From Phoronis australis (taxonomy: Eukaryota > Animalia > Phoronida): a DNA stretch of 49,254 nt. The position numbers and the translations under genes were made by a program. Location of the stretch: contig NMRA01000865.1 in assembly GCA_002633005.1 (NCBI GenBank), forward strand, positions 16,749 through 66,002. The letters run 5' to 3'. The notes below the pieces were generated by a model, which did no database searches, was not told where the DNA came from, and saw only the letters and a list, made by a program, of their open reading frames with translations. The stretch's first letter is position 1; each line of letters begins with the position of its first letter. Shown here piece after piece: positions 1,295 to 48,515 of this stretch.

Positions 1295-1501
1295 AAGTCA
1301 CTGATGTTTCCACCAATTTGATCAGAAATCCAAATTTCGAGGTGACAGAAAATCACGTGCCAGTATTTTGGGAGCCATTCGGTAATGTGAAGTTCAAGGC
1401 AGGAGTGTTGCTTCACAATGGAACGGCATCTTGTCAAACATACCAACGACACGCACTGTGGAGTGGAGTGGGACAAAATCTCTTGTATGAAGTTAAATTA
1501 G
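1295..1501 (+). CDS. CBM-TIR gene exon a (CBM N-terminal part, xVTDVSTNLIRNPNFE...LLYEVKL)
   Basis: Polypyrimidine tract tttttttag, with a NAGNAG alternative start at 1298; donor G|GTAAAC at 1502; phase 1-1. Confidence 0.85.
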
Positions 1502-4500
1502 GTAAACGGTGTTGTATATAATGTGGTAGGAACTTGTTAAATATGTATTGTCAGCGGTCTGTATGGGGTAGAGATAATATCTCTGGTTTGAAGTTAAATT
1601 TGTGTAAATAATGTTGGATAAAAAATTGGTTTTAACTTGTCATACACATTCAACAAAATACTGTGGGGAACAGAGTGGGACAGGATCTCTGAAGTTATAT
1701 TTCACAAAACTTTGTCTGATGGTAGCTTTGGTTTGGAACTTAAGAATGATAAAGCGTTATTTGGTGCTAGTTATCTTTTATGAAGAATGCACCATATTGT
1801 CCTAAATTAGTGGAATGTTGCGATAAATGCTACAGTTAACTGCAGAATGATTCGTGATTGGTATTGGGTGTTCTGATTTTTATTACTGTGCAGTATCATT
1901 GTGCAATATAACTGAGCAGTATTATTGTGCAGTATTATTTTGCAGTATTAACTGCTGTATTTCTGTGCAATAATAACTGTGCAGTGTTGATGTGCAACAT
2001 TACTGTGCAGTATTAGTGTACAGTATTGCTGTACAGTTAACAACTGTCCAGGACTTTTTCATTGACAATAAAAAATCCAGAGATAGTCAATAAACTGAAC
2101 ACAACAAAACGGGCTTGTTCAAGTGTGAACTTCCTTCAAATTCCGACGTGGTTATATAGTTGACTGTAGGCATTGACCTAGATAGGTATGGAAGTCCTGC
2201 CAGGGTACTGTCCTCAATACAGTGTTTGATCCTTGATCTACTGTACCTTGACAATGAAAAAACAAAACTCAGTACATATACAAAATGAAATCACCATGGA
2301 ATACAGGTACCATATATCAGTGCTCTCTCAGTAATCAATACTGTACTGTGATGATTTTGATTACATATGCTCCCAGTGACTGAATTTAGTTCATTTCATT
2401 TTTAGTGTTTGCTTTCAGGTGTAAATAAGTTGACTATTTATAAGCACTACCTATACAAAACACCTTTATATGACTCTCTAGAGATGACAAGAAGATACCC
2501 ATACCAAGCTTGGTTGTAATTAAAACCATGATTTAAACTATGTGGCTGTGAAATAGCATATTCATTTTTTCTTCAATTTCCAAAAGTATGATTTTGTATG
2601 AGATGTTAAAATTAATGCTTGAAGTATGTAATGTGAACACACAAAATCAAGTTTGTCACTCCTAGTAACCTTCATGGATTTCCCAACAAAAGACTGTTTT
2701 CTTAATTGAAGACCTTAAACAAGATAATGTTGACTTAGAAAACATGAAGTGTTTACCTGAAACTGCCTTCTTTTCATAGGCATACCTTCAGTAAGGGCTG
2801 TTCCAGTAAAATCTGTATGGGAGGGGGGGAAGGCACCTTTTTTGCACCCACCACCCATATTTTTCATTTATTTCTTCAGCCTACCACCCGTAATTTTTTA
2901 TAAGTTTGAAATGCAAACACCCGTAATTTTTTTTTTGTTCTTGTGGTTGACTGCACAGGTGCTTGAGTTTATCTGTTCCTCCATCACCACTAACGTCATT
3001 CATTACTAAGAAAACATACGTTTCTTATATATGGTTATTAGCCATCAAGAAATTCGAGCACCTGTGGTTAACTGGTGTTATGGGCATGCCGATGAGGAGA
3101 TCGGATAGAATGAAAAAGTCAGAGCTTTTTGCAAGTTGCATTTTTGTTTCAGTTTTTGGTTCTGTGCGGATTGTTTATAAAATTTACTAAAATTACCCAC
3201 CATCAAACATTTATGGCCCAATGAAACAACAACGACCTGTAAATTTTTATTTTTTGAAGTACGACCACCAGCCATTTTGAATTTAAATCAAACGCAACCA
3301 CCCATAAATTTTTATTTCAGTTGCCTTCCCCACCTCCCACACAGATTTTGCTGGAACAGCCCTAAAATGTATTAGCTGTTCTGCCAGTGTTAATTTTCCA
3401 ATAATTCAGCATTGACAATCAGATCAGTTTGTGCACTGACTTTTCACTACCTGCGACTCCAGATTTATCATTTATTTCAAAACCAATTGATTTAACATCA
3501 AGTCAACATTCTTGACTTGGAGGACCTTAAGTTTGAAATAACGAAGACATCACATTTACCTCACCTTTGAACTGTTATTTGTTCATTTAGTCTGAAAGGT
3601 TTGATAGCTTTATGGTGTGCTGGTGAATAAAATGATGTCAAACCTATAAGAAACACTCCATTATTTATAATAAAGCTATTGGTATTACTATGATTTCTGT
3701 TGTTACTATTTTCAAAATCATTATTATTTGTAGCGTTAATACTCCTACTGCCACTGCTACTCCTTTTAGTGTTATTGTTGTTGTTGTTGTTGTTGTTTTC
3801 TTATTATGTTTGTGGGATATTTTGCATCGGAATATTTGTTGCGATGTATTCAAAGTAACTTGAATAAATAGTTTTTCTTAATTACTTTAGGTTGTTTCCC
3901 TCAAACTTGACATGTGGCTCCTATCTCTGTCTTCCTACAGGTCACCGGTACAAGTTTTCTGCAGTGGTACGCCTAACAGATGATAATGAGTCATCTGAGA
4001 AACATCGCATATGCTGTACATTGAAGTTAAAATTGCAGAACGAAAAAGACGAGCGATACCAATTATTTGCACTTGTAGAGTAAGTAAGATTGAAATTCCA
4101 CTATGTTCTTAAATCCCTCAAGAGATGTAGATGGTGCTGACTGTTGTCCACCAAATATTCTATTACAAATCCTTTTCATTATGTCACCGTTATACTGAGA
4201 AACAGCCAATTGGAATGGTATCTTTAAGGAAGAGAAGTGTTTTGTTTGTTTTAAAAACTTGATGATGATAGACTTTTTAAAGTCAGGTTACTTGGAACAA
4301 AGTTTCCCCATTTTGATAATTATTGTAATTACTTTTCTAACACATTTGCTAACCAGACGTAGTAAAGGTCGTGAACTGTTACTCAACCTTTTAACCTCAT
4401 CAACAGCAATGTAACTTCTGCTGATTGGTCGGAACTCAAAGGTCAACTGAACATGCCCTTGGGAGCAGACGGCTCACTCCTGGAAACTGCCTTCATATAC

Positions 4501-7500
4501 TTTGATGGTCCTCCACATGATGTCAACTTTGTCATTGCTTCTGTCTGCCTTCATGATGTGACTCCACCTGGTGTCAGACAGCGGTGTAAGTATACTGTTA
4601 AAGCCTATCTTGAACCAGAACACCTGTAAATTTAGTTTGTACAGAATGTTAAAAGCATTGCTTTGGGTCTACTATAGTGCCATAAATTGCAAAATGTAAC
4701 GAAATGTTAGGCATATTGGCTTGCTTTTGTCTACGTCACCTCGAGAACCACCTTTTAATTCAAACAGCTGCGAATAACAGTGGTGTTCTATTCAGACCCC
4801 TATTCGATACAACTGTTATAGGCCTTTTGCTGTTTGTGCTGGGATCTTGCAGTGACACAACATGGCACCTAAAGGCAGCTTCACTTATCATTTGCGGGCT
4901 TACATTTGTGCGATTGAACTTGCGTTTTCTTATTATACTAAGGCTTTTCTAGGACTATCTGGTTAGTCCAATATATCTAAAATAACAGAATTTCATTGAC
5001 GTTAGGTTTTAACTGATCAGTAAGAATTTGGCTACATCTGAATCACTTTTTAGTCATTCATGAAGTGTGGTTTTACGTCAAAACCGAGGCATCGTGGGTT
5101 TGCATGTTGTAACAGTCATATTTTCATGGCTTAAATGACAGTAATGTGGATGGCTCTTAAAGTGGTTCGGTGCCCTCAATCAGTGTGCTCTCAAGAGACA
5201 AGCGGTGAGATACGTGAGTCATTCTAAGAGCATCATCAGGTACCATTACATGCAGTTATGTCAACGATTGCCAGGATAAATCTATGCTCCCACAGAAATT
5301 ATGTTCGCAAACTGTTCTACCAGTATTTTACGACCAGGCCACATGGAAATGAAAATAGCGCATGGGTTGTGCTTTCTGTTTTTTTACAATCCAGCTTCAT
5401 ATTGGCCTTATAGCTTTGATAAAATCTGATTCAGAAGTGGTAGTTTACAAATACTACTTTGACATACTCTTAAACTTCATTCCATACAATCAAGACCTAC
5501 TCTGTCTATTTCAGAGGTTATCTTTGTGTAGTGATCTCTGCATTCAGACTGCCCAACTTACAGGCCTACATGCACCTTCATATAATCCTACAGACCAGCA
5601 TTGTAAAAAAATACAGATTTTCAGATACGGTGGTGCTGTTTATGCTAACTTTTTCCTATCCTTTTGTTGTAGTGGAGGCGAACGAAATAATGAGAAAAAA
5701 CACTACGAAGTCGTGCACAGATACTTTGAAGCCTGCTGAGTCATACCCAGTTGTCTATTTGTCGTACCACCAGTCAGCACAGAACAGGGTAAGCTCGAGA
5801 TGTGACTGGTGCAATTGTTTTAAAGATTTTGAGCTATTATCACTTATGCCGTTTTGCAATATAGACATCTACTTTATGCCTAAATTCAAAACGTGCAGAG
5901 AACAAGTGAATGATTTATGCAGATGCACACAGATTGCCTTGGACTCAAAAATTGGATGTTGTGTTCAAATTCAGAAGCGAATGTCAAAAGTTTTTGGACT
6001 GACAAAACGACCCACAATTCCCCATCATGACAGTTCGAAGAGAGTTGAGTTCCTTGTCAGAGTAGTCTCCCATGATGACCGAGAATGAAGGGGAATTAAA
6101 GGGAAAGTTAGTAAGGTGACTAAACTATTCTGCAATTAGAATTTTGCTGCGGCTAGTGGTCATAACTAGTCATTTTTGTGGTTTAAGGAACTGGCCACTT
6201 TGACGGGAAACTGGTCTGATTACTTTCATTGTGAGGAAACGGTGTGGCTCAGTGGTTAGACCTCTGAACTCCCGCATGGGAGACCTGGGTTCAAATCCTG
6301 GCTTCACTCGTCTGGCTGACATTCGAGCATTGCACAAAGATGTCTCCTGTTCCTCTGAGCTCGGTCTTGCTTGTGAATGTGTTCAAGGGAGTGAATGAGA
6401 ACCTGGATATAATGCGAATGGGATTTCCGGGGCTGTGCTCATATTTATGTTCATCTGTCATGTACTGTAAGTTGAGGTTAGATGTTTGAAAGCAGTTTTC
6501 TTTGCCAGTGGCATTGTTGATACCATAAACTTGTGAAGGATAAACCCCAGATACAATTGATAAGTACAGTAATCTGGTTGTGTTGACCAGGTGGAGGAAA
6601 TGAAAAAGCGACTGGTTCATGCTGGAGTGAGAGTGATAGATGTCCATCGTACACGGAGTGGACAAGACCTGACAAGTGCCATTGGAGATGGGATAGAAAA
6701 GGCCAAGGTGAGGATCAAGTTGTAAAGAAATATTGTGCACAATATTTGATTATTAGTTTTGTTGCTGAAACTGTTTAATTTCAGTATCAGTTTTAGGTCA
6801 GTAGAGCCCCTCCGTGGTTACTTTCAAATTCGTATCTGGGATTCTGATACACAAGTCCTGTGAGTTTACTGAATTACAAAACAATATTTTAAAGTTGTTT
6901 TGTTTCTTTTAAAAATGTTTCTGTTCCCAAACGTTAGCATAAGTGTGATGCCTTTAAAAAGTTAGAAATACCTGTCCATTATGACATAAATATGCTGGCT
7001 GCAATAAACTTCATTTGACAACTTTGAGTGAATGTTTTTGTTGTTGCATTGTATGCTTGAATTTCATTAAGAAGTTGTTTTTAATGTCCATTATTTTGTG
7101 AAAAGTTACAGACTTTAGGTGCATCCATCAGCAACCAGGGTTAACACAAGTTTTGTTCTTCAAGTTTTGATTATTCTACCAGTTTATTTAACAACTTAAG
7201 AAGGAATCTATATTTTGTCTTTTGTCCTATTTTGCTATTTTTCATTTTTTTTATTTGAAAAAATGTAATACTGGCTTTACATTTTCCAATCATATTTCCG
7301 AAATAACCATTTTAGGTCGTTATCAGTTGTGTAACAGGGAAACATTGCACAGATGAGATTCACCAAGGGGAGATAACTCTTGCTCACCTGCAACAAGTGC
7401 CAATATGCCCAGTATTGCTGGAACCAATGTCATGGCCACCCAAGTGTTCAGTTATGAAGATTTACGAGAAACTGCGCTTCCTGGACTTTGCTACGCAACA

Positions 7501-7555
7501 CAGCATTACGCAAGAAATGCTAGAAAGGTTACTCGCTGGTATAAAAAGTGCATAG
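1295..7555 (+). CDS. 5'-incomplete multi-exon gene encoding a CBM4/9/22-like carbohydrate-binding module fused to a C-terminal TIR (TIR_2-like) domain; join(1295-1501,3941-4079,4407-4585,5673-5788,6591-6707,7316-7555)
   Basis: All five introns are GT-AG with matching phases (1,2,1,0,0). The 998 spliced nt are open to TAG at 7553-7555. CBM motifs: NLIRNPNFE, RHALWSG, GHRYKFSAVVRL, WSELKG, IYFDGP. TIR motifs: VYLSY, GQDLTSAIGDGIEKAKVVISCVT, EITLA, PICPVLLEPMSWPP, LRFLDF. Confidence 0.88.
1880..2040. repeat. Degenerate minisatellite with an approximately 13-bp unit (attactgtgcagt)
   Basis: Repeated ctgtgcag/tgtacag cores. Confidence 0.8.
2795..3362. mobile_element. PIF/Harbinger-type MITE in an intron
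   Basis: Terminal inverted repeats GGGCTGTTCCAGTAAAATCTGT...ACAGATTTTGCTGGAACAGCCC; TAA target-site duplication at 2792-2794 and 3363-3365; internal accaccc subterminal repeats. Confidence 0.88.
3774..3797. repeat. (TTG)n microsatellite
   Basis: Read directly. Confidence 0.9.
3941..4079 (+). CDS. CBM-TIR gene exon b (GHRYKFSAVVRL...YQLFALV)
   Basis: Acceptor tcttcctacag; donor GA|GTAAGT at 4080; phase 1-2. Confidence 0.87.
4407..4585 (+). CDS. CBM-TIR gene exon c (DNVTSADWSELKGQL...FIYFDGPPHDVNFVIASVCLHDVTPPGVRQR)
   Basis: Acceptor catcaacag; donor T|GTAAGT at 4586; phase 2-1; completes the CBM-like motif set. Not in the ORF track. Confidence 0.87.
5673..5788 (+). CDS. CBM-TIR gene exon d (linker plus TIR strand bA, PVVYLSYHQSAQNR)
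   Basis: Branch-point-like gctaac at 5644, acceptor ccttttgttgtag, donor AGG|GTAAGC at 5789; phase 1-0. Confidence 0.85.
6233..6440 (+). mobile_element. tRNA-derived SINE in an intron
   Basis: Pol III A box TGGCTCAGTGG at 6245 and B box GGTTCAAATCC at 6288; no complete cloverleaf; 3' boundary approximate. Confidence 0.65.
6591..6707 (+). CDS. CBM-TIR gene exon e (VEEMKKRLVHAGVRVIDVHRTRSGQDLTSAIGDGIEKAK)
   Basis: Acceptor gttgaccag; donor AAG|GTGAGG at 6708; 39 codons; matches the TIR aA-bB-BB loop-aB pattern. Confidence 0.88.
7316..7555 (+). CDS. CBM-TIR gene terminal exon f (VVISCVTGKHCTDEIHQGEITLA...LLAGIKSA*)
   Basis: Acceptor ccattttag; 79 codons plus TAG; TIR bC to aE with the WPP motif. 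Confidence 0.88.
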   Translation, partial: VVISCVTGKHCTDEIHQGEITLAHLQQVPICPVLLEPMSWPPKCSVMKIYEKLRFLDFATQHSITQEMLERLLAGIKSA

Positions 7556-10500
7556 ACCAGTGATGCATTCTGTAACACTACATCAGACACTCAGGCGACA
7601 CCTGTTGTGAGAAATTTCAGTTGTGGAACAGAAACTGTGAATTTTCTCCCATAATGCAACATTTCAGCCTTGTGGTTCAGTCACTTCAGTGGCGGCCATT
7701 TTGCTAGTCTATGTTTAGGTCTCAAGCTTACTTTGTAAAACACTCGTATGATTTTACATGATCTTTCTCTACGGAATGTTCCATAACATTCTGCCACTAG
7801 TAGAACATTCCTTGTGTAGAGGCTGATGTCGTAAAAAAATTATGAATAGGCTCAGAATGTGTGACATCACCTCAATGGGACGTCTTCCATCTTGGTTCTC
7901 ATTGTTATCATCGATTTGGTTAATACGGTATCCTGAATGGTTCACAAATGCTGTACCCAAGTTGAAAAATTCTTTCAGTAAAATCAAATTTTGCCTATTT
8001 TGCCTAAGCTGTTCGGAATTTTTGATTATTCGTTTAGTTCGGGTTTTATGCCAAATTAATTCGCAAAACACAAAGCATTTTTTAAAAAAAACAGTGGTAC
8101 GCAAAAACTAGGCATTTTAAAGCAAAATCAACAACGTTTTTGAGACATAATGTAAAGTTTTCATTTAAAAAGTTTTTAGTAAAATCGGCTGAGGAGTTAT
8201 TTTGCTATGAATGTAGTTTTCTTCCACATGAAAAATTGACTTGGGAAACATGGTTACATGACAATAATGAAGATGCAATAGTAAAAAGCATATTTTTATT
8301 ACCCTCTATCTTTCTCGTTTCAGAAAATATATACTTTTAATGATTGACAAAGCATAGTTTTTTTTTGATATTTGACTTTAAATTGAAGTCGTTTATTAAA
8401 GTCCTAGATAACTTCAATCTACGTCATTTTATAATAATAATAATGGGAGTGTGACATAATCACCGTCTTTCGTTTACCGTGGCTGCATTCCATAGAGCAA
8501 GTTACTTGCAAAAAAATTGTGTTCATACAAGAGCAGGCAGGACAATTCCAGTGAAACAGTGAGGAAGTGCAGAGGACGAGCATAGTGCGTGCCGATGAAG
8601 TGATTGGTTAGCGAGGTTAAAACGTAGCATTATGAAACAAAATTCACTGTTTTCATTCCATAAGTGAGGACGTCGGCACAAGTAACTTGTGAGTGTCTTG
8701 CATCTTTCAACATAGCCCAAAAGTTGTGGCACATTAATTTTGAAGGCATGGTGGGTCTCCTCTTTATACTGGGTGATGTAGAACACGCTTTTGAGTGAAC
8801 AAGTTATATGAAATTGCTTCCAAATATTTTAGTTGGAATGTTGGTCCATAAAGGTTCAGTGTACACTTGGCGTTGCTTTGCAAGAGCATTATGTTTCGTT
8901 AATGCGTTAGATTTAATCTGATTGTAACTGCTAATGTGCTCTATATTCTGTTATTATCGTTGATGATTTATGGGTAAACAGGGATTTTTTCTTGTACTAT
9001 TTTTAATAACATTTATAGGAGATGTGATTTTGGTGCCACTGTCTTGCTTTTCTGGCATATTGTTGCTTTTGTGTCCCAAAAATGTATTTTTGTGATTATT
9101 GTTGGATGGGTTAGACTTTTCAAAGTTATTACATTTGACCAGAGCTGTAAAACAACATACTGTATAGTGTTTTTGTGATTTTGTTACAAGTTGTCAGTTA
9201 TCGTGGTGATTTGCCAGACATTTGCTGAAATCAATGTCAGTGTCTTTACTATTTAAATAGGCTTAAAGTACTATGAACATGTGGGATTTGACCGTAGAGT
9301 GTTCAGCTGCTGCTGCTGCTTTAGTGGGTTCGATTCCGCGCCACTTCTAATTACTGTAAAGTTTACGTTTCTTGCTGAGAATGTGCCTTTAAGTGGTCAG
9401 TTATTTGGCACTGACAGGCATACTTGCACACACCGCTGCATGCATACTATATAATGCTGTGTAAAGGAACTGGGACTCCTGTTATCAAAGTTTTAGCTAA
9501 GACGTCGAAGTGTTTTATGAAAGTAACTTATGACTTTAGACTGAATACTGGTCCTTAAAATTACCACTTCACAACTGCTGACGTCTTGTTTCAGTATAAC
9601 AAGGAAACAAAAAGTTGTTGTAAACTTGATCACATCTCTATAATCACACTTTACCAACCATTTTCATAAACCTGTTCCAATGAAGTGAGTGGCAGTGAAA
9701 GCCAAGGATTAAGACTGTTTATTAATGATTAAAAGGACCTTAAGTCGACAGACTATCAGTGCTGTCTTTGAGGTTTGAACCCTTGGTCACTTCGTTGGGA
9801 GGCACACGTTCTATTGCTAATTAAAAACTTCATTGTTTGCTGAAAAGGATCGCAATTGTTGTGGATGTTATATCTGGGTTTTACAAGAGTATCGGTGACA
9901 TTTTGCCCTTTTTGGGCACTTGCATATATTCATGTATATTTATATGTATTCTAATTGTATTATTTCTTTACTATTTTTAATTTGCTTTAGCATTTATTTT
10001 AATTTGAAAATTTACCAGGGTAGTCTATCTATTAAGCATTTAGCACTATTTATTAACGCACTGTGTTTCTACGCATTTTAATATACAAAAACAAGTAATA
10101 TACATGATTGTAATTCATTTCTTCCATATTTTGTAAAGTTTACTGGTTTTTGAGGCTGAGATTCCATTTTGGCTGTACTTTAAGAGGTATGTGTTTTAAT
10201 TTTTCTTGTCAGTAATATTTAAATGGCATTTCTTTAGGTAGTTGTAATTTTCTATATGCTATACCAAAATTTTGCAATTGTAATAAAATTTTGCAAATTT
10301 TGTATTGGTTCTTTAATTTATATGATTATGTTCACCCTACATATATTCAAACATGTTTTGAAATCTTGAGCTCTGAGCCATATTTATAATTTTGAGCCAT
10401 GTTTGACAAGCCTGGTCTGTTTTACCCAAAGACAAATGATTTCTACAGTGTTGTATAATGGCAGGCCTTATTATTTTTCAGTATGTCTGTGATAGTGACA

Positions 10501-15457: not shown

Positions 15458-16907
15458 ACGAGACACAATATTGGAGCCATCTAGTCTCTGCATAAACTGG
15501 TGCAGGTACATCAGACGCTATAAGAGTCCTTGTCGTTATGCTGTGCAAAATGTTGCCCCCCCTTGTGATATCCTAGATCCGCCACTGTTTTTAATATTGT
15601 TATTTTCCTGGGTCCACTTTCTGTAGTAACATAACAATCATAAAATGTGTCCCAATGTCTCTTGTTTACGCACACTACCGTACATGTATAAGGATCACTA
15701 ATGTTTACTTTCTGCTGGTTTAATTAGTCATTTATACAACCTCTGGTTCATTTCCTTTTTATGTTACTATTACACCTCAGATTAATTGGCATTAGCTTAA
15801 TTAGTTGACTAGTTAACTATTTAATAACCAATTGGTACGTGGAGAGTTTCATTGTTGCACACTGTTATTCTGGTAACGCTCTTGGTTTTGAACCTGCCAG
15901 ATATGCAAAATGATATTATTTATGAACTTTCTAATGAGATGGAAAGTTTTTGTGACAATAAAGGTGACACTTTTTCCAATGACATAGTGTTGAAATATAT
16001 ATATATTTTTCCTAGTTACATGACTTTGGTATTAGAGCACTCAGGTAATGCTTGGTCATGTGGTTATATTTTAAGGAAATTGTTAACTTTTGAAATTCAT
16101 GTAATACGCCTATGTGGTGTTACGTTACGCCTACCAGCTAGGCAGTTGTAGTACACATGGCCGGCTTCCCGAATCGCGTAATCACAAGCAGAATATCCCC
16201 GTTTGACAATGTTTGGGGGTATTAGACCACAAAACATTTAAAAAAATAGAGATGAAATTTTCTCGAAAAGCGCTCTTTGTGATAGTAGTTCTTAACTTAT
16301 TTCGTTTGTACCAAGCAAGCATTTCCCCCGAAGCCCCGATATTCACGACAAGAACCGACACTGGAGCGGCGCAACCCGGCTCAGTGGCACGAGATCAAAG
16401 TTAGCACTCCAGGTCTTCTGTTCTATGATTTCACTTCGTTATAGGTTTTTAGTATTTTAACGCCAGCAAACCGAATTTCTGAGAAAACCTTTCTTCAGCG
16501 AATCTGTCTTTATCGCCCGAAAGATGACGAAAAAAATAAACCAATGACGCGTGCTCGTGTCACGAGCCTACTATTTTCAAGTCGTTGATTGACTGAGTGA
16601 CAAAAGCCAAAAATGACGTTTATTAGATTGTGTTTTTATAAAGTAAGGGATCACCAGTATTAATAAAATGAAACCCACAGCCAAACTAGTGGACGTTTTG
16701 TTTCACAACAAGTCGACAGGCACAAGCAAACAACGGATTATTATCTTCAAGAGGGTACAAAGTGGACGAATCAGTATCGTGGTTGGATATTTCAACTTAA
16801 TACACAAATGCTGTGTGACTTCGTGTCTTCTCATTCATTTAAACTTTGCATTTCAGGAAGGGATATTAGAGATCTTGTAAAATAAAATCTACACAACGAG
16901 ACAAAAG

Positions 16908-17341
16908 ATGGCACTGGAAGTGTGGATAGCAAAGGTCCTGGTCCTGGTTGCACTCTTCGTTGTTACGTTGGGCTTCAGCTTAATACCCGTCAAGTTCAAG
17001 AGCGTCATAAAAAAAACAACCGACAGCAACAAGCAGCATAGATATCAAACAGCAATCAGTTTTTGCTCATGTTTCGCGGGTGGTGTGTTTCTTGCTACCT
17101 GTTTTCTTGACTTGTTTCCCCATGTGCAAGAGCAAGTCAATGAAGCGTTTGATCAGTACCAAGTGGTGACGTCATTCCCGTTTGCGGAATTCGTGATGAT
17201 CTTTGGACTGTTCCTAATATTACTCATTGAACAACTCGTCTTATACGTGAAAGAACACCAGGGCAGTGTTGAAGCAGAGAAGGAACCCTTATTGCCAAGT
17301 GCGAGTAGAGCGTCCTCAAGAAAGAGTTCTATTGCATCATT
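16908..17341 (+). other. Truncated near-identical copy of the ZIP paralog A 5' CDS, probably an uncollapsed haplotype (16287-17341 repeats as 17347-18374)
   Basis: Ends at the single N at 17342, after which the sequence restarts about 1 kb back. Differences are few and allele-like (WIAK vs WITK, small noncoding indels). Confidence 0.8.
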
Positions 17342-17941: not shown

Positions 17942-19126
17942 ATGGCATTGGAAGTGTGGATAACAAAGGTCCTGGTCCTGGTTGCACTCTTCGTTGTTAC
18001 GTTGGGCTTCAGCTTAATACCCGTCAAGTTCAAGAGCGTCATAAAAAAAACAACCGACAGCAACAAGCAGCATAGATATCAAACAGCAATCAGTTTTTGC
18101 TCATGTTTCGCGGGTGGTGTGTTTCTTGCTACCTGTTTTCTTGACTTGTTTCCCCATGTGCAAGAGCAAGTCAATGAAGCGTTTGATCAGTACCAAGTGG
18201 TGACGTCATTCCCGTTTGCGGAATTCGTGATGATCTTTGGACTGTTCCTAATATTACTCATTGAACAACTCGTCTTATACGTGAAAGAACACCAGGGCAG
18301 TGTTGAAGCAGAGAAGGAACCCTTATTGCCAAGTGCGAGTAGAGCGTCCTCAAGAAAGAGTTCTATTGCATCATTGTCGTATCAGTCTGACCGCGCTCTC
18401 TCCGTTGGTATTAGTGATAGACCAGTCATACACCACGAGAAAACTTCACGCCCGGTCTCTCCCGACTTAGATCAAGACTTAACTCCAGCCGAATCCAACT
18501 TAGATGTTGTGATCTCAGAGGAACACCAACGCGGTCACCATGGCCACGGACACCATGACCACAGGCACAGCCATTTACATGATGACTTCTCAGTTCATGC
18601 AGATCTGAGTTCTCACTCGGTTATACGATCAGTTTTGCTTCTGCTGGCCCTGTCGTTTCATTCTGTCTTCGAAGGACTTGCTCTTGGACTCCAAAAAACG
18701 ACAGAAGGTGTTGTTAATATTTTTACCGCTCTGGTCATCCATAAGTCAATCTTGGCTTTTAGTTTAGGCATCAATTTAGTGCAGAGCCGACTTAGCTTTT
18801 GGGCAACCATTCGGTCAAACGTCTTATTTGCTGTTGCTTCTCCCATTGGAATAGGAATCGGCATATTAGTTCTAGATGCAGCTAATTCAAAATCAACCAA
18901 CTTGGCTAGTGGTATATTACAAGGTATTGCCTGCGGAACTTTTCTCTATGTCACGTTTTTCGAGATCCTACCGCATGAGTTTAATAACGGGGAGCACAGG
19001 CTCCTCAAAGTTCTGTTCTTAGTCTTAGGTTTTGGTGTAATGGTAGGTGTGATGTTTATACATTCAGAGGCCGGTGACCACGAGCATCATCATGCCATTG
19101 ATAGCAAAACTACTGTTGGTTTCTAA
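17942..19126 (+). CDS. SLC39A1/3-like (ZIP): ZIP (SLC39A subfamily II, ZIP1/ZIP3-like) zinc/metal transporter, paralog A, 394 aa, CDS without introns
   Basis: 8 hydrophobic segments; CFAGGVFLATCFLDLFP; His-rich loop; TM4 HSVFEGLALG; TM5 HKS; GTFLYVTFFEILPHE. Confidence 0.96.
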   Translation: MALEVWITKVLVLVALFVVTLGFSLIPVKFKSVIKKTTDSNKQHRYQTAISFCSCFAGGVFLATCFLDLFPHVQEQVNEAFDQYQVVTSFPFAEFVMIFGLFLILLIEQLVLYVKEHQGSVEAEKEPLLPSASRASSRKSSIASLSYQSDRALSVGISDRPVIHHEKTSRPVSPDLDQDLTPAESNLDVVISEEHQRGHHGHGHHDHRHSHLHDDFSVHADLSSHSVIRSVLLLLALSFHSVFEGLALGLQKTTEGVVNIFTALVIHKSILAFSLGINLVQSRLSFWATIRSNVLFAVASPIGIGIGILVLDAANSKSTNLASGILQGIACGTFLYVTFFEILPHEFNNGEHRLLKVLFLVLGFGVMVGVMFIHSEAGDHEHHHAIDSKTTVGF

Positions 19127-21816: not shown

Positions 21817-21990
21817 NNNNNNNNNNNNNNNNNNNNNNNNNNNNNNNNNNNNNNNNNNNNNNNNNNNNNNNNNNNNNNNNNNNNNNNNNNNNNNNNNNNN
21901 NNNNNNNNNNNNNNNNNNNNNNNNNNNNNNNNNNNNNNNNNNNNNNNNNNNNNNNNNNNNNNNNNNNNNNNNNNNNNNNNNNNNNNNNNN
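21817..21990. other. Assembly gap of 174 N; single-N joins also at 17342, 37457 and 45217
   Basis: Read directly. Confidence 0.99.
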
Positions 21991-23704
21991 CTAAGTCCGC
22001 CACTGCTTTCATCTGCATCAACAATTTGTTTACTCCTGGGTTACACGCCACATGGAACAATTGCTGGGTGAGTCTTAGTTTAGAACCCCTTGTTCCCCTT
22101 GGTTTCGTCTAAAAGTAAATGTTTGTATTTCAAAACCCTGGTAGGGTGTACATATACTTACCCCCCGGATTAATCTGTTCGTTTAAGCTCGCCTCACAAT
22201 AATAACAGTGAACGTGTTTCCTGAAATGAAAATAAATTCATGTGTGAAAATATTTGTGATTAAAATAGGGCTTGATGTACATGTACTCGCTCATTTTAAT
22301 TTAATGGTAATGCTATGATATTGTTTAGTTTGGAAACGAAAGTAACAGTAATGATTCAAAATGTGATTAATTCATTGCACCACACTTATTTTGTAACCCT
22401 TTTCACGTTTTATAAGTAAAAAGTTCATAAATGTTCGGCATACCACGATGCGTTCTCGTTCGCATTAACAACACAAAAAATTGCGTTCTCGATCGCATCT
22501 TTCAACAGAAAAGTGTCGAAAAATCAGAGATCCTGACAAAACTACGAAAAACAAACGTTGTGTTATATTTTCACAAGTCACGTCTTCATAACTTCATGGT
22601 CAATTTATTGATTTAGTGCCAAAAATAACCGCAATTTGCCAAAATGACATACGAATCACTTTTGACTCAAGCGCTGCCTCGTTCAACGTAACTTATCTCC
22701 TATAATTGGAACAGACACCAGCCCAAACCTCTACCTGCCCTTCCTCAATGTGTTACGCCTTGAACTCATGTCTCTGTTTTCACATTGGAAGTAAAAACAA
22801 CGTAAATTCATCAAATTTACTCACCTTGCCTGGTTTCGCTTCTCGCAACAGGTTTCGTTCTCGATCGCTTTCCGGTCGTTCTCGATCGCGGGTTGGCCGG
22901 GGTGATAATATGTCTAGTGTGGATGCCTTCAATCCCAAATACCTCTTGCAGCTGAGCGAGAAAATAATTCTACAAAGAACCCGTTAACTCTGCATTAGTA
23001 GCGGCTGAGCCAGATCCCAATGCAGTACATAGCAAGTGGGCGGATGCATCCTTCTGCTGCATCTGCGGCAGACTGTCACAAGGTGAGGATCAAGTTGTAA
23101 AGAAATATTGTGCATAATATTTGATTATTAGTTTTGTTGCTGAAACTGTTTAATTTCAGTATCAGTTTTAGGTCAGTAGAGTCCCTCCGTGGTTGCTTTC
23201 AAATTCATATCAGGAATTCTGATACACGAGTCCTGTGAGTTTACCAAATTACAAAACAATATTTTAACTGTTGTTTTGTTTGTTTTAAAAATGTTTCTGT
23301 TCCCAAAATTTAGCAAAAGTGTGATGCCTTTAAAAAGTTAGAAATACCTGTCCATTATGACATAAATATGCTGGCTGCAATAAACTTCATTTGACAACTT
23401 TGAGTACCATGTTTTTAGTGAATGTTTTATTGTTGCATTGTATGCTTGAATTTCATTAAGAAGTTGTTTTTAATGTCCATTATTTTGTGAAAAGGTACAG
23501 ACTTTAGGTGCATCCATCAGCAATCAGGGTTAACACAAGTTTTGATCATCAAGTTTTGATTATTCTACCAGTTAATTTAACAACTTAAGAGGGAATCTAT
23601 ATTTTGTTTTTTTGTCCTATTTTGCTATTTTTCATTTTTTTATTTGGAAAAATGTAATACTGGCTTTACATTATCCAATCATATTTCCGAAATAAACATT
23701 GTAG

Positions 23705-23998
23705 GTCGTTATCAGTTGTGTAACAGGGAAACATTGCACAGATGAGATTCACCAAGGGGAGATAACTCTTGCTCACCTGCAACAAGTGCCAATATTTCCA
23801 GTATTGCTGGAACCAATGTCATGGCCACCCAAGTGTTCCGTGATGAAGATTTACGAGAAACTGCGCTTCCTGGACTTTGCTACGCAACACAGCATTACGC
23901 ATGAAATGTTAGAAAAGTTACTCGCAGGCATAAAAATGCATAGACCAGTGATGCATTCTGTAACACTACATCAGACACTCAGGCGACACCTGTTGTGA
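23705..23998 (+). pseudogene. Duplicate 2 of the TIR terminal exon, with its complete upstream intron 23083-23704
   Basis: Acceptor attgtag is intact and the frame is open. A 1-nt deletion near the end (ata aaa atg cat) bypasses the original stop and adds a new tail ending TLRRHLL*. Confidence 0.8.
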
Positions 23999-24499
23999 GA
24001 AATTTCGGTTGTGGAACAGAAACTGTGAATTTTCTCCCATAATTCAACATTTCAGCCTTGTGGTTCAGTCACTTCAGTGGCGGCCATTTTGCTAGTCTAC
24101 TTTTAGATTTCAAACTTACTTTTGGAAACACTCACGATTATTTTGCATGGTCTCACTCTATGGAATTTTGCCCTTGTGTAGAGGCTGATGTTGTTGTTAG
24201 AAATATCTGTCCATTATGACATAAATATGCTGGCCGCAATAAACTTCATTTGACAACTTTGAGTACCATGTTTTTAGTGAATGTTTTTGTTGTTGCATTG
24301 TATGCTTGAAGGTACAGACAATCGGAGGGAACACCAGTTTTGTTTTTCAAGTTTTGATTACTCTATCAGTTAAGCGAATTAAGGAATCTATATTATTTTG
24401 TCTTTTGTCTTATTTTGTTAATTTTCAATTATTTTTTATTTAAAAAATGTAATACTGACTTTGCATTTTCCAGTCATGTTTCCAATATAACCATTTTAT

Positions 24500-24739
24500 G
24501 TCGTTATCAGTTGTGTGACTGGGAAACATTGCACAGATGAGATTCACCAAGGGGAGATAACTCTTGCTCACCTGCAACAAGTGCCAATATGTCCAGTATT
24601 GCTGGAACCAATGTCATGGCCACCCAACTTTTCCGTGATGAAGATTTACGAGAAACTGCGCTTCCTGAACTTTGCTACGCAACACAGCATTACGCAGGAA
24701 ATGTTAGAAAAGTTACTCGCAGGCATAAAAAATGCATAG
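24500..24739 (+). pseudogene. Duplicate 3 of the TIR terminal exon, splice acceptor lost
   Basis: Open 79-codon frame (...LLAGIKNA*), but the acceptor reads ccattttat|gtc (AG changed to AT). Confidence 0.82.
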
Positions 24740-25681
24740 ACCAGAGATGCATTCTGTAACACTGACACGCAGACACACCTGTGATGAGAAATTTTGGTTA
24801 TGGAACAGAAACTGTGAACTTTTTCCTATAATTCAACACTCCAGCCCTGTGATTCAATCACTTCAGTGGCCGCCATTTTGCTAGTCTACTTTTAGATTTC
24901 AAACTTACTTTTGGAAACACTCGCGATTATTTTGCATGGTCTCACTCTATGGAATTTTGCCCTTGTGTAGAGGCTGATGTTGTAAAAATTATGAATAGGC
25001 TCAGAATGTGTGACATCACCTCAATGGAAGGTCCCGTCATCTTGGTTTTCATTGTTGTCATCAGTTTTATTAATATACTCTCAAATGCTAAGTTGAAAAA
25101 GTTTATTTTTTTTAATTCTGTCAGTAAAATCAAATTTTGGTTATGTAAATGAATAGGTAAAACCATTTTGTTTATCATCCTTAAACTATATTATGATAAT
25201 TAGGAAAATGACATCAGTAATCACTAACTATGTGTCTGCTGTAGCTGCATTCCGTGAGCAAGTTTCTTGCAACAAAATTGTATTCGTACAAGAGCAGACA
25301 GGACTATTTGAGTGAAAAGCGAGTAAGTGCAGAGGACAAGCAAAATGGCCACTAATGAAGTGATTGATCAGCGAGGCTGAGAACTAGCATTATTAGACAA
25401 TATTCATTGTTTTTGTTCCATTAGCGAGAATCGGCACAAGTGACTCGCGAGTCTCTTACATCTTCGAACATATCCCAAAGGTTGTGGCAGACTAATTTTG
25501 AAGGCATGTGAGTCTCCTCTTTATACTGGTTGAGGTAGAACATGCTTTTGATTGGACCTGGAGCATTTTAGACAAGTTATATGAAGTTGCTTCCCACATT
25601 TTATTTGGAATGTTGGTCCATAAAGGTTCAGTGTACACTTGGCGTTGCTTTGCCAGTGCATCATGTTTCGTTAATGCTTTA

Positions 25682-37031: not shown

Positions 37032-37882
37032 GTACTTCACTATTCCAAGGTGAAGTTTACGCGCTTCCTGGTACGATAAATCCCAGTGTATTTATAGTAG
37101 TGCATGACGGCGACATCCCGTTGCTCCCAACTTGTTCGATTCTATAGCCCAACAACAAATTGGGAAGTTTACTCCCGTAGCCAATATTTTACACTACTGA
37201 TTAACTCCAATCTGGCATTTATGGTTGGAGGGCCTGCGCTCTTTTGTTCGAGAATTGCTCTAATCTCCGATCAGATCGTATGTAGACTGAGTGGGGTGGG
37301 CTGATAAAAATGAAAGTTAAGTTATAACATATTTGAGCTTAAACCAATAGCATTTCTGAATTCCTCGTAAAATGCTGATCATGTTCCGGTTTTGAATCAC
37401 CAAAATCGCCCAACTACAACAGAAGTTAAGATAATCTATTCTGTCCAAACGGACGCNGTACTTCACTATTCCAAGGTGAAGTTTACGCGCTTCCTGGTAC
37501 GATAAATCCCAGTGTATTTATAGTAGTGCATGACGGCGACATCCCGTTGCTCCCAACTTGTTCGATTCTATAGCCCAACAACAAGTTGGGAAGTTTACCC
37601 CCGTAGCCAATATCTTACACTACTGATTAACTCCAATCTGGCATTTATGGTTGGAGGGCCTGCGCTCTTTTGTTCGATAATTGCTCTAATCTCCGATCAG
37701 ATCGTATCTAGACTGAGTGGGGTGGGCTGATAAAAATGAAAGTTAAGTTATAACATATTTGAGCTTAAACCAATAGGATTTCTGAATTCCTCGTCAAATG
37801 CTGATCATGTTCCGGCTTTGAATCACCAAAATCGCCCAACTACAACAGAAGTTAAGATAATCTATTCTGTCCAAACGGACGC
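37032..37882. other. 425-bp doublet around the single N at 37457, probable haplotype overlap artefact
   Basis: 37032-37456 and 37458-37882 differ by a few SNPs only. Confidence 0.8.
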
Positions 37883-40820
37883 ACTGGGTTTGACTGTGTT
37901 CATAAGCATTCGGTAATTGCGTGCAACCACCGTACGTTTCCTTTGAAGCCTGGGAGATAATTGGCCTGCTTGTTATCATACGGGACAAAAGACTGAGCTG
38001 GGCAGTTAACAAAAGAGCCAGATGTTATCGCACATTCAGCACCCCTCACGTCTGGAAAAGTTACTGAACGACAGAACGCTGTAATGGAATTCAAATTCCT
38101 ATGACAATACTTAGTTTTCAGCAAAATTCCCCCAGTATAATGGATAAAAATCAAAACAAGCCCTTTACTCTGACATTTCTTACTCAGAAAGGACTAAGGA
38201 TGCCACTTCCACGTTGTCAACTTGAGTCACGTGTCCTTTCCGAATTAGAGGTTTTATTAACCACAGTGAACTCTGAAGCGTTGACAAGGGTCTCAGATGG
38301 TTTCGATGTTCTAGTTCTTGTGACGGAAATTGAATCGTGTCACTATAAGGAATTTTATGAGGTTCTCATTTTGGCCTACTAAACTGGACGAAACGATATA
38401 GTCTATTACAAATATAGTACTATCACAATCCATTTACTTTTTGCTCAGTACAGGCAAGCAAATTTTTACCGCCAAATTTTGTTGAATGGCGTTTATATTA
38501 CAATACGAAACTCGCGCCATCCAATCGATCAACACTGAGTGCTGCTCAATACGTTTCCGGTTTGGACTTGTTTCAGTTACGAAAAATATGCACCTGAAAA
38601 TGGCAATGGACAATGTCGGGGTTACTGAAATAAGTTTAGAAAATTGTACCCCATGTGTTCTTAGAAGTGATCGTGACCGTTGTTGTTCCCAGGTAGCTTA
38701 CTGAACGCCACAAACAAGTGTTAAAAGATGCATTACGCCGGCTAAAGCAAGAATATCGAATTAGATGTTTTACTCTCATGAAATTGGGTCTCGTGCTACC
38801 GTTTCTGTAGGTAATGTGTGCCCCCGTCATTTTCGATTTTACTATTAAAAGGTTGGCCAAACCGAAGAATCTCCCTTTGGAGCGTTTTCTTCAAACGCTG
38901 ATGGCTTCGACGGTAATATCACGCTAGTGTGACGAATATACGAGACTGATTTGATGGAGAGTAAACGGCCGAATTCGGCTTTCGTTTCCAGCCAGTAAAA
39001 TGTACTGAAGATGTGAATTATGCTTAGCGGAAAGGCAAAGAAATTAAACACCAATTCTTATTGTCATAACACTTAACAGCTCTGTGGTCACGATTATTAC
39101 GACAATCACTAATAAAAAACATTGGACAAATTGCAGCGCCGGTTGCAACCTCTAGAGGTAATGTTGTATATAGTTTTACCTATACCCGTGAAATTAAATT
39201 CAAAAATGAAAAGTTTACCTTTGGAAAAGAATCCAATCCAATATTTTGTGTTACTGACCAAGCGCATTGTACTTGCCAATTGTGTCGCTCTTTACTGACT
39301 GTTCCGCTTTTTTTCCCGCTATCCCGCCACACACGTCTAAAGTGATATATTGTGATTACTATTGTAATTTCCCACTCGACATAGTCCTAATTCCCGTTCG
39401 ATTAAAAATAAAAAAACGGGACGTTTCATGTGTTTTTTTAGTACCCGCAATATCCCATTCCATTAAAACAAAAACCATCGTTGGCTGCTTTCGGGTGTTA
39501 CATAATCCGTTCGACAAAAAACGCTGCCGGAAGTTTTTTGAGTGTTACGTCGAACATTTCACCCTTGCGTTTAGGCATAGACCGATATGTACCGCTTTTT
39601 ATTCTCGAATGTTGACCGTGACAACTATGTAACAGGTGTTCAAAATAACATTGTCTCTTTATTATTATTTTGAATATTGTGTTTCTTTTTATGTTACTAT
39701 TACTCCCTAAATTAATTGACATTAAACTTAATTAGTTCACTATTTAATTAGTTAATGACCAATTATTACATAGAGGGTTTCATTATTGCACACAGTTGTG
39801 AATAGTTTTGGTGACAATAAAAGTGACACTTTTCTCATTGGCAGTGTTGAAATTTGTATTTGTCCTAGTTACATGATGTTGGTATCGTATTAGAGCACCG
39901 GCGGTACTTGATCATGAGGATATATTTGAAAGAAATAGTTAACTTTTGAAATTATTGTTATATGTCTATATGGTTTTAAGTTGCGCCTACCAGCTAGGCA
40001 GTTGTAGTACACATTCATGGCCAGCTTTCCGAATCGCAGAATCAGATGATCATCCGTTTGACAATATTTGGATGTATTGGACCGCAACACATTCCAAAAG
40101 GTAGACGAAATTTGTTCGGAAAACTTTTTCGGTGATAGCAGTTCTAAAATTACTTCGTTTGTACCAAGCAAACACTCCAGCTAAGCCCATAGTAAGAAGT
40201 GACACCGGAACAAGCGAATTCGAACAAATCCCAAGCATGCGCGGCGCAACTCACCAGCACGAGGTCGACTGAAGCTGGCATTCAAGGTTTTCTGTTTTTT
40301 GGTTTCGCTTCGTTATAGGTTTTCAGTATTTTAACTCCAAAAAACCGAATTTCTGAGAAAAATTGTCTTCGGCGAAGCTGTCATTATCGCCCGAAAGATG
40401 TTGACAAAAATAGCAAATGGCGTGTGCTAGTATCACGAGCGTCGTTTTCAAGTCGATGATAGACCTTTCCAATGAGCTATATTTATCTCATGGTACCTTT
40501 CTTTGTGACAAAGAAGAAAATGACGTTTACTAGATTGTTTTTTTATTTAACAGGGACCACCATTTGAATAAAATGAAACATATAGCCAAACCAGTGGACG
40601 TTTCTGTTTCACTGTAAGTTCACAGGCACAAGCAAACTCGGCAGATTCATTGAACCTACTCCAACAGGTCACAAATTGGACATATCAGTATCGTGGTTGA
40701 ATATTTCAACTTCATATGCAAATGCTGTGTGAGTTCATGTCTTTTTATTCATTAAAATTTTGCATTTCAGGAAGAGACATTGGGGGTCTTGTAAAATAGA
40801 ACTACACAACGAGGCAAAAG

Positions 40821-41963
40821 ATGGCTCTGGAAGTCTGGATAACAAAAGTCCTAATCCTGGTTGCGCTCTTCATTGTTACGTTCTGCTTCAGCTTGATACC
40901 CGTCAAGTTCATGAGCGTCATAAAAAACACAATCGACAACAACAAGCAGCATCGATATCAAACAGCAATCAGTTTTTGCTCTTGTTTCGCGGGTGGCGTA
41001 TTTCTTGCTACCTGTTTACTTGACTTGTTTCCCCATGTACGAGAGCAAATCAATGAAGCGTTTGATCAGTACCAAGTGGTGACGTCCTTTCCGTTTGCGG
41101 AATTCGTAATGGTGTTTGGACTGTTCCTAATATTACTCATTGAACAACTCGTCTTGTACGCAAAAGAGCGTAAGGACAATGCAAGAGCGAGTAAAGTGTC
41201 CCCAAAAAAGAGTTCCGTTATATCATTGTCGTATCGGTCTGACCGCGCTCTCTCCGTTGGTATCAGCGATCGACAAGTCATACTCCTCGACAGGCCTTCA
41301 CGCCCAGCCTCATCTGACGTAGATAAAGACTTAACTCAAGCTGAATCCCACACGAACGTTGTGATCTCAGAGGAACACCACCGCGGTCACCATGGCCACG
41401 GACATACCCATTTGCATGATGAGTTCTCAATTCACTATGATCTGAGTTCTCACAACGTTATTCGATCGATTCTGCTTCTGCTGGCCCTGTCGTTCCATTC
41501 TGTCTTCGAAGGACTTGCAGTTGGACTCCAAAAAACGTCAGAAAGTGTTGTAGATATTTTTGTTGGTCTGGTCATCCACAAATCAATCGTGGCTTTTAGT
41601 TTAGGCATCAATTTAGTGCAGAGCCGACTTAGCTTTTGGGCAACCATTCGGTCAAACTTAATATTTGCTGTTGCTTCTCCTATTGGAATAGGAATCGGCA
41701 TATTAGTTCTAGATGCAGCTAATTCAAAATCAACCAACTTGGCTAGTGGTATATTACAAGGTATTGCCTGCGGAACTTTTCTCTATGTTACGTTTTTCGA
41801 GATCCTGCCGCATGAGTTTAATAACGGGGAGCACAGGCTCCTCAAAGTTCTGTTCATAGTCTTAGGTTTTGGTGTAATGGTAGGTGTGATGTTTATACAT
41901 TCAGAGGCCGGTGACCACGAGCATCATCATGCCATTGATAACAAAACTACTGTTGGTTTCTAA
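40821..41963 (+). CDS. SLC39A1/3-like (ZIP): ZIP (SLC39A subfamily II) zinc/metal transporter, paralog B, 380 aa
   Basis: Same motifs as paralog A, intact ORF, two in-frame loop deletions of 9 and 5 aa. Confidence 0.95.
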   Translation: MALEVWITKVLILVALFIVTFCFSLIPVKFMSVIKNTIDNNKQHRYQTAISFCSCFAGGVFLATCLLDLFPHVREQINEAFDQYQVVTSFPFAEFVMVFGLFLILLIEQLVLYAKERKDNARASKVSPKKSSVISLSYRSDRALSVGISDRQVILLDRPSRPASSDVDKDLTQAESHTNVVISEEHHRGHHGHGHTHLHDEFSIHYDLSSHNVIRSILLLLALSFHSVFEGLAVGLQKTSESVVDIFVGLVIHKSIVAFSLGINLVQSRLSFWATIRSNLIFAVASPIGIGIGILVLDAANSKSTNLASGILQGIACGTFLYVTFFEILPHEFNNGEHRLLKVLFIVLGFGVMVGVMFIHSEAGDHEHHHAIDNKTTVGF

Positions 41964-46800: not shown

Positions 46801-47814
46801 GTCCACAGGAATTCAGCGCGAATACACAATTCATAGGCCTGAACCTAGTACCCCGTTTTTTGTTTTTTTATTCCAAGTTTTTTCAGTAAAAAGTCCACAT
46901 ACTGAAAATTCGAGCCTCCTCGTATATTTTAGGCTGGGTGCACGCATGCAACACGTCTACAAATAAAAACAAACCAATGAGCTTACATGCAACGCCAAAC
47001 TCAAAAATAACCCCAAGTCTAACCTTTTATTAAACGAACAATTTTTATTTGATCGCTGGCTACATTACTAATTCGCTCGGACGCATATCGGCACCACTAA
47101 ATAATTCACGAAAGACAAATATTTCTTCTAAAATGCTATACGTTCAATACTTTGACTCATCGGTGCAAAAGAAGTTCAATGTTGACTGACAACTCCATCA
47201 GTCATCCAAGTTCGTGAAGGCGCAAACGCTCAAGCGTAGTGAAATGACCCATACATAACGGTGTCACTGTAAACTGAGCAGTGGGTGTTTCTTCGCTCAC
47301 ACGTAAGTAACGTAAATTTTACACGTGAGAGATTCTATTGGAACACCTGTTGTTTGATATGATAATCCGGGACATTTGAGATATGTGAATGAACCTATTC
47401 GCGGAATTGACCAAAACCACTCCCAAAAATTAAAAACCTAACGTACCTCATTTAGTTAGCGTAACTTGCTGTAAAAATAGAAAACGTTCATCCAGTCACG
47501 TCGACTTGTTTGTGTTATCATTTTAAATAGTTTGAGAGTTTGAGAAACAACATATTGTCTCAGTGGTCAAGCCGTCTTGGCTGACAAATCATGTTTTTGT
47601 GGACAGTTTTGGTAAGTTTCTTATAACATCACAATACTGTTTGCAGTGGGGATGGTATTTATTGTTGTCACAAATTGAGGAAGAAAGTATTCAAAGGAGC
47701 AGTAAAAAAAGCAACTAAATTACACATAGCCGTGGTCCCACAGAGATTGAATGCTTTTTACAATCGGTAACATTAAAAGTTTCATGTTAAGCGTAAACAG
47801 ACGGAATGCTAATA

Positions 47815-47940
47815 CATCTAGTGTGGATGCCTTCAACCCCAAATGCCTCTTGCGGCTCAGCCAGAAAATAATTCTACATAGTAGTGTGGAATAGAACCCA
47901 TCCACTCCGCATTAGTGGCCGCTGAACCAGATCCCAGTGC
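47815..47940 (-). mobile_element. Degenerate tRNA-derived SINE; related copy at 22909-23020 (-), more distant ones at about 9290-9430 and 26740-26890 (+)
   Basis: Minus strand reads TGGTTCAGCGG ... GGGTTCTATTCC. Confidence 0.55.
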
Positions 47941-48268
47941 AGTACATTGCATAGTACTTTTAAAGTGAATTTGTTAAAAACACCGGCCTTGATTTTAGCG
48001 AATGGCTAGAAAAAAACTGCAAAAATTGGCAATTAGTAAAAAAAATCACAAAAACACCGGATGTTGTTTTATAACTGTGGTCAAAGTTAAAAACTTCGAG
48101 AAGCACATCCTAACCAACAGTTATCCCCAAAGTGCATTTTGGCAGTAAAACCGAAAAAGTCTGTTTTAATAAGCATTTTAGTTTTTGTCTAAACTTCACG
48201 TACCTTCTATATAAGCAACGGTGATTTTCGCCAGAAATGCTTTCTCCCAGAATACTCCATTTAGGAGT

Positions 48269-48515
48269 GGGCCAACGACGACAGCCTACCCAGACACTAT
48301 CACAAAAGCAAAGACGAGTAGGCCAACGACGAGAGCCTACCCAGACACTACCACAAAAGCAAAGACGAGTCGGCCAACGACGACAGCCTACCCAGACACT
48401 ACCACAAAAGCAAAGACGAGTAGGCCAACGACGACAGCCTACCCAGACACTACCACAAAAGCAAAGGCGAGTGGGCCAACGACGACACTCTACCCAGACA
48501 CTACCACGAAAGCAA
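48269..48515 (+). repeat. 51-bp minisatellite, about 4.8 units; one frame reads as a Thr/Pro-rich repeat PTTTAYPDTTTKAKTS(R/G)
   Basis: Units start at 48269, 48320, 48371, 48422 and 48473. Confidence 0.92.

Follow-up and report, generated by a model that had tools for sequence, protein, structure and literature searches.

A spliced phoronid gene predicted to join a CBM22-type carbohydrate-binding module to a TIR domain

Introduction

Does a single animal gene couple a sugar-binding domain to a TIR domain, and if so, what might its product do? The question is raised by the window analysed here, a stretch of 49,254 nucleotides from the phoronid Phoronis australis (contig NMRA01000865.1, positions 16,749 to 66,002 of the forward strand; all positions below are those of the window). 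An initial annotation of this DNA had read six exons between 1295 and 7555 as one gene for a carbohydrate-binding module (CBM) followed by a TIR domain. It is animal-type DNA throughout, rich in AT (GC 34-42%). By its sequence the gene is a spliced animal gene, with a predicted single soluble product that carries a CBM22-type CBM and a TIR domain.

Gene structure

The gene was rebuilt from the sequence and the list of open reading frames. The acceptors are AG in all six exons and the donors GT in all five cases, the phases agree throughout, and the spliced frame of 998 nt encodes 331 residues and one stop, with no internal stop (exon coordinates in Table 1). The annotated structure of six exons with canonical splice sites, matching phases and one open frame was thus reproduced, at 331 residues where about 332 had been claimed. 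Three other acceptors for exon 3, at 4356, 4362 and 4367, were rejected as in-frame stops follow them, leaving the acceptor at 4406.

Exon 1 opens in phase 1, no start codon was found in its frame, and positions 1-1250, much of which is repeat DNA, held no exon from an ATG to a phase-1 donor that scored above threshold. The gene is therefore predicted to start outside the window, in agreement with the earlier view that its N-terminal part lies upstream. Intron 1 contains an element at 2794-3366 resembling a miniature inverted-repeat transposable element, with inverted ends (2794-2838 versus 3319-3363) that are 91% identical and a related end at 384-453.

As the maximum hydropathy over 19 residues of the spliced protein was only 1.03, no transmembrane helix is predicted, in contrast to Toll-like and IL-1 receptors, in which such a helix stands between sensor and TIR domain. 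A hidden transmembrane exon in intron 3 was also considered and rejected: the single phase-compatible candidate of at least 30 nt peaked at a hydropathy of 1.16. The annotation's claim that no membrane segment separates the two domains was upheld by both analyses.

The carbohydrate-binding half

A CBM profile was built locally from 41 near-full-length bacterial PF02018 (CBM_4_9) domains. Against the spliced protein it scored 55.9 bits over profile positions 3-137 of 162, compared with a maximum of 7.1 in 2,000 shuffles. When exons 1-3 were joined in all six orders, only the genomic order gave a single domain (58.7 bits; 16.7-42.2 for the others). The CBM4/9/22-like assignment is borne out by this score and by the collinear exons, although Pfam itself, queried with single exons, was weak: exon 1 matched CBM_4_9 at E=0.0033 and exon 5 matched TIR_2 at E=0.024, both below the curated cut-off, and the other five queries matched no CBM or TIR family. 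A six-frame scan of the window for further CBM exons returned the three known ones only.

The best pairwise match among the 41 seeds was a bacterial domain, L157 (E=6e-10). Among solved structures, those closest to L157, and closest to an alignment of 12 seeds with the three exons, were the CBM22 modules of Xyn10C (PDB 4XUP/4XUO) and XynY; these share with the window CBM the cleft positions R..W.G, Y and Y.E/D. In the alignment with 1DYO, the CBM22-2 module of Clostridium thermocellum XynY/Xyn10B, W53, Y103 and Y136 fall opposite W55, Y108 and Y146 of the window protein (counted along the chain), E138 opposite D148 and R25 opposite F28. We take these five residues of CBM22-2 to be those of the ligand-binding cleft; three are thus identical in the window, one is conservatively replaced by Asp and one is changed to Phe. 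The N-terminal Glu and C-terminal Asp of such modules are presumably calcium ligands. The Glu is retained as E15 and the Asp position is A159, so the pair is incomplete. CBM22 modules also differ from the window CBM in sitting on a glycoside hydrolase rather than on a TIR domain. In the ESM Atlas exon 1 gave leads only, with top scores of 0.83-0.84 and a CBM_4_9 cluster at rank 13 (0.78). AlphaFold2 folded the exon alone at a predicted local distance difference test (pLDDT) score of 36.7, too low for use.

The TIR half

For the second half we used a profile of 223 TIR_2 subfamily domains picked by likeness to the window TIR. Exons 4-6 scored 86.9 bits over positions 5-139 of 147, where none of 1,000 shuffles exceeded 5.6, and they tile the TIR domain without gaps. 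The exon order 4-5-6 gave 89.9 bits and two other orders 46-47. The annotated TIR domain is confirmed by these scores and by the scanned relatives of exon 6, every one of which (64/64) carries TIR_2.

The best matches of the family profile among solved structures were the NAD+-cleaving TIR domains of Cat1, AbTIR and SARM1. A Glu conserved in 222/223 domains of the family aligns, via the profile, with the Glu of the WCWDE motif of Cat1; in the window it is E271, and Y206 and D230 are retained beside it. This Glu, which lies in helix C, is catalytic in NADase TIRs and is common to the window TIR and the three enzymes; in the window TIR its catalytic role is putative. SARM1 and Cat1 further carry an ARM-SAM or CARF regulatory part, which the window protein does not, nor does it have the Trp before the Glu.

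The join between the halves

Exons 3 and 4 are very probably spliced into one fused transcript, judging from their splice signals. Position 5672 is the best-scoring acceptor in intron 3 and lies at the 99.6th percentile of the 2,634 AGs of the window; among the 3,094 GTs the donor at 4586 (GTAAGT) ranks at the 96.5th percentile, with two other GTs of intron 3 scoring higher (both percentiles by a crude matrix). No AATAAA, ATTAAA or TATAAA occurs within the intron (4586-5672). A possible in-frame micro-exon of 21 nt at 5184-5204, hydrophilic and with the strongest donor score of the intron, was also seen.

Coding constraint on exon 6

The segment 6704-21816, which carries the 3' end of the TIR domain and a ZIP gene, is tandemly duplicated at 23079-45045. 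Identity ranges from about 70% to 93% between blocks, which suggests several duplication events or gene conversion. Two partial duplicates contain exon 6. For the one at 23079-24166, exons 1-5 are absent from the assembled sequence; likeness to the main gene starts at 23079-23083, four bases ahead of the exon-5 donor, and the DNA before that point bears no relation to the gene, is blocked by stop codons and is in part a repeat in common with 47807-47955. A gap of 174 Ns at 21817-21990 could conceal more.

Between exon 6 and the copy at 24500, 9 changes are synonymous (expected share 23%) and 5 non-synonymous (P=0.001); the other two frames gave ratios of 2:12 and 2:11. With the copy at 23705 there were 5 synonymous and 4 non-synonymous changes over 77 codons (P=0.035), and the changes common to both copies were 6:1 synonymous to non-synonymous (P=0.0008). 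This shows purifying selection, exon 6 having evolved in its frame as protein-coding DNA, the branch under constraint not being distinguished. The test covers exon 6 only, the CBM exons having no second copy.

Relatives of the TIR domain

A phmmer search with exon 6 of 1.84 billion representative sequences yielded 65 matches. The 64 that were scanned with Pfam all carry TIR_2, 34 have a Death domain, and none has a CBM or ROC/COR match (for one protein, among the five families listed). The unscanned match, P0001, is a 4,342-residue repeat protein that topped the list on a stretch of 19 residues. Apart from it, the best two were from Ptychodera flava and Antedon mediterranea, and the best identities over exon 6 were 33-38%. 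All named source organisms were bilaterian (an organism being named for 5/8 clusters, 27/120 listed rows and 7/10 rows of a third listing). Four short fragments in the database start where intron 5 lies, which suggests that this intron is shared with relatives.

The closest TIR sequences were those of invertebrate proteins of the TIR_2 subfamily that have VFISYQW and WPP motifs and are either Death-TIR-TIR or TIR-only ("tirA-like"). They carry Death domains, long N-terminal regions (resembling helical repeats, with weak Pfam matches) or nothing besides the TIR; none of those retrieved has a CBM. Proteins P0002-P0046, 900-1,570 residues long and "uncharacterized" in their sources, form a family widespread among invertebrates that combines a long N-terminal region with a Death domain and two TIR_2 domains in tandem, which have a conserved Glu.

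PF02018 was likewise absent from the 120 listed of 358 further profile-search matches (20-760 residues). Word-based searches for homologues among longer proteins gave 15 candidates for exon 6 and 11 for exon 1, none at E<=0.001. Scans of metagenomes gave 597 pattern matches for exon 3 and 275 for exon 6, none confirmed. Sequence searches of the PDB with exons 6, 1 and 3 found nothing under E=0.6, and tblastn with single exons against plasmids and phages reached E=0.3 at best.

Precedents for the domain pairing

Five sea-anemone contigs with a CBM and TIR or TIR_2 have been listed, two from Actinia tenebrosa, one from Anthopleura buddemeieri and two isoforms from Aulactinia veratra (van der Burg et al. 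2016, PMC5094078, Table S9 and Fig. 2 legend). Their best Swiss-Prot match is XYNA_THESA, and the parts of the paper available list them without a functional test (PMC5094078). The table labels the CBM only as clan CL0535, so that their likeness to the window gene is one of listed domains, not of sequences (PMC5094078). Their TrEMBL matches include A7RN39 and K1QWV6, ROC-COR-Death-TIR_2 proteins, whereas the 64 scanned relatives of the window TIR have no ROC/COR (PMC5094078 for the matches). The CBM-TIR architecture is thus not wholly new, having a listed and uncharacterised precedent in anemones. XYNA_THESA is, we assume, a GH10 xylanase with CBM22 modules.

In bacteria, fusions of an NPCBM lectin to a TIR domain have been described as predicted counter-invader systems (Kaur et al. 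2021, PMC8195603, in the sections available). As in the window, a lectin-like beta-sandwich is paired with a TIR effector, but the CBM is of another family and the genes are intronless and operon-linked (PMC8195603). Term searches found no CBM-TIR protein in PMC2575513 (text and supplements), PMC8662601 (supplement), or PMC9440496, PMC9334734 and PMC6321704 (text). The initial annotation had known of no characterised animal protein of this architecture. That part stands, as our literature search found none; the architecture as such had, however, already been listed as transcripts of three anemone species (PMC5094078, as above), the one animal precedent found.

The fusion in the window may have arisen independently of that in anemones, because the named TIR relatives are all bilaterian, none of 177 retrieved proteins has a CBM, and the ROC-COR-Death-TIR_2 type is absent from the 64 matches. 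The surveys of Poole and Weis (2014) and Gerdol et al. (2017) reportedly may also list the architecture.

Proposed function and alternatives

Our tentative proposal, which we hold as a serious possibility rather than a probability, is that the protein is soluble and cytosolic and that a polymeric glycan clusters its CBMs and switches on the TIR domain. The CBM would bind a polymeric beta-glycan, xylan-like or a beta-glucan, whose source could be, for instance, algae, fungi or oomycetes that get out of the phagosome; CBM22 is counted among beta-glucan binders (PMC10076258, in the part available). Several copies lined up on one polymer would draw their TIR domains together, and the assembled TIRs would either cleave NAD+ via E271 or seed the assembly of other TIR proteins, for instance the Death-TIR-TIR relatives, leading to an immune or cell-death signal. 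We propose this because of the phase-matched frame, the collinear profile matches, the kept cleft aromatics and TIR Glu, the coding selection on exon 6, and the anemone and bacterial precedents. The fullest form of the idea, a lineage-specific cytosolic pattern-recognition enzyme of a marine bilaterian in which a CBM22 was exon-shuffled onto a TIR of the Death-TIR-TIR family, independently of anemones, with beta-glycan directly switching on NAD+ cleavage, is unlikely.

To our knowledge, few cytosolic polysaccharide sensors are known in invertebrates. Animal TIR enzymes are almost none beyond SARM1 and Raw (PMC13455253, in the text available), and the fullest form of the idea, if true, would add to SARM1 another TIR NADase of animals, one that a polysaccharide triggers. 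The questions of animal TIR enzymes and of invertebrate polysaccharide sensors would both become directly open to experiment through a two-domain protein whose ligand class can be predicted and whose read-out, NAD+ loss on xylan or beta-glucan, is simple. Separate origins of the fusion in anemones and in the lineage of the window would point to repeated selection for coupling glycans to TIR domains; simple orthology with the anemone transcripts would widen the range of a gene that is as yet uncharacterised.

Several observations weigh against the glycan-switch proposal. The Trp that stands four residues before the Glu in SARM1 is I267 in the window (Asn in the family). Only 24/52 columns conserved in at least 80% of the 223 domains are kept, with the W, GGGD and Y..S.NC motifs and the BB loop altered. 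The 86.9 bits of the window TIR compare with a minimum of 168 for the 223 members, which are themselves included in the profile; a quick tree of 93 rows left the window TIR on a long unplaced branch; and by motifs and nesting it did not fall within the invertebrate Death-TIR-TIR/tirA-like subfamily. In the CBM, the Phe at the R25 position is found in L157 also, and the C-terminal Asp replaced by A159 is present in 37/41 seeds. The CBM half and the CBM profile matched none of 173 or 177 retrieved proteins (best E=1.5 and 0.99), and SARM1 was the sole known enzymatically active animal TIR before Raw (PMC13455253). Because so few of the family-conserved TIR positions are kept, the main rival is a real CBM-TIR protein that is a non-catalytic adaptor or decoy, its TIR binding or dampening Death-TIR-TIR proteins and its CBM fold serving localisation or protein contact. 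The altered BB loop, the long branch and the loss of R25 and the C-terminal Asp would all suit such a role, but E271, Y206, D230 and three cleft aromatics are retained despite wide drift elsewhere, and we regard it as somewhat unlikely.

The remaining alternatives concern the gene itself. With the N-terminus upstream of the window, location and full architecture depend in part on sequence outside it, and the six exons could be the C-terminal end of a longer protein with further CBMs, GH10 or ROC/COR/Death domains upstream and control elsewhere, the CBM-TIR pair not being the working unit. Exon 1 does begin in phase 1 at the CBM boundary, its start codon is absent from the window, and many TIR relatives, 34/64 of those scanned having a Death domain, exceed 1,000 residues; the anemone transcripts, on the other hand, are listed with CBM and TIR only (PMC5094078), and we consider this reading rather improbable. 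A slightly smaller chance is given to two adjoining genes; the 4585>5673 join is predicted from splice signals and phase. Read through the donor at 4586, the frame of exon 3 stops at 4627-4629, 14 codons on, which would end a CBM gene, and the ATG of exon 4 at 5690, in fair context (A at -3) and 19 codons ahead of the TIR, could begin one of the TIR-only proteins common in this family. Yet the GTAAGT donor and the best acceptor nearby match in phase, for which chance alone gives 1 in 3, and a 3' end and a promoter would both need to fit into 1,087 nt with none of the three signals searched for, an argument weakened because the gene's own 3' end has no canonical signal nearby (first ATTAAA at 8395). 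Least probable is a non-functional, decaying chimeric copy left by local segmental duplication: the region is duplicated, both extra copies of exon 6 look damaged and no search run found a close homologue, but 331 codons hold no stop or frameshift, the splice dinucleotides are intact and exon 6 has its synonymous excess, albeit with the branch not told apart.

Features of the window

Table 1. Coordinates of the predicted CBM-TIR gene and of its partial duplicates in the window
Feature	Position	Strand	Remarks
Exon 1	1295..1501	+	Internal, phase 1/1; N-terminal third of CBM, with E15, R51 and W55 (1459-1461)
Exon 2	3941..4079	+	Phase 1/2; middle of CBM, with Y108 (4057-4059)
Exon 3	4407..4585	+	Phase 2/1; end of CBM with Y146, D148 and A159, and start of linker
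Predicted intron 3, between CBM and TIR halves	4586..5672	+	1,087 nt; GTAAGT donor
Exon 4	5673..5788	+	Phase 1/0; linker and first strand of TIR; in-frame ATG 5690-5692, possible start of a TIR-only product
Exon 5	6591..6707	+	Phase 0/0; TIR helix A and strand B with D230; divergent BB loop
Exon 6	7316..7555	+	Terminal, phase 0/stop; C-terminal half of TIR, E271 (7370-7372), WPP motif; stop TAG 7553-7555
Partial duplicate	23079..24166	+	Intron 5, exon 6 (from 23705 on, with its AG acceptor and frameshifted last codons), 3' flank
Second partial duplicate	24330..24955	+	Exon 6 (24500-24739) in intact frame, without the AG acceptor

The window also holds two intronless ZIP (PF02535) zinc-transporter genes on the forward strand, at 17942-19126 and 40818-41963, whose products of 394 and 381 residues are 81% identical and have His-rich loops. 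Near-identical tandem stretches at 16334-17341 (97%) and 37032-37456 (98%) each end at a single N (17342 and 37457) and are probably assembly overlaps; the former creates a truncated third ZIP copy at 16908-17341. At 48265-48515 a tandem repeat of 51 bp (4.9 copies, 94% matched) lies in open frames on both strands, with a weak Pfam match only.

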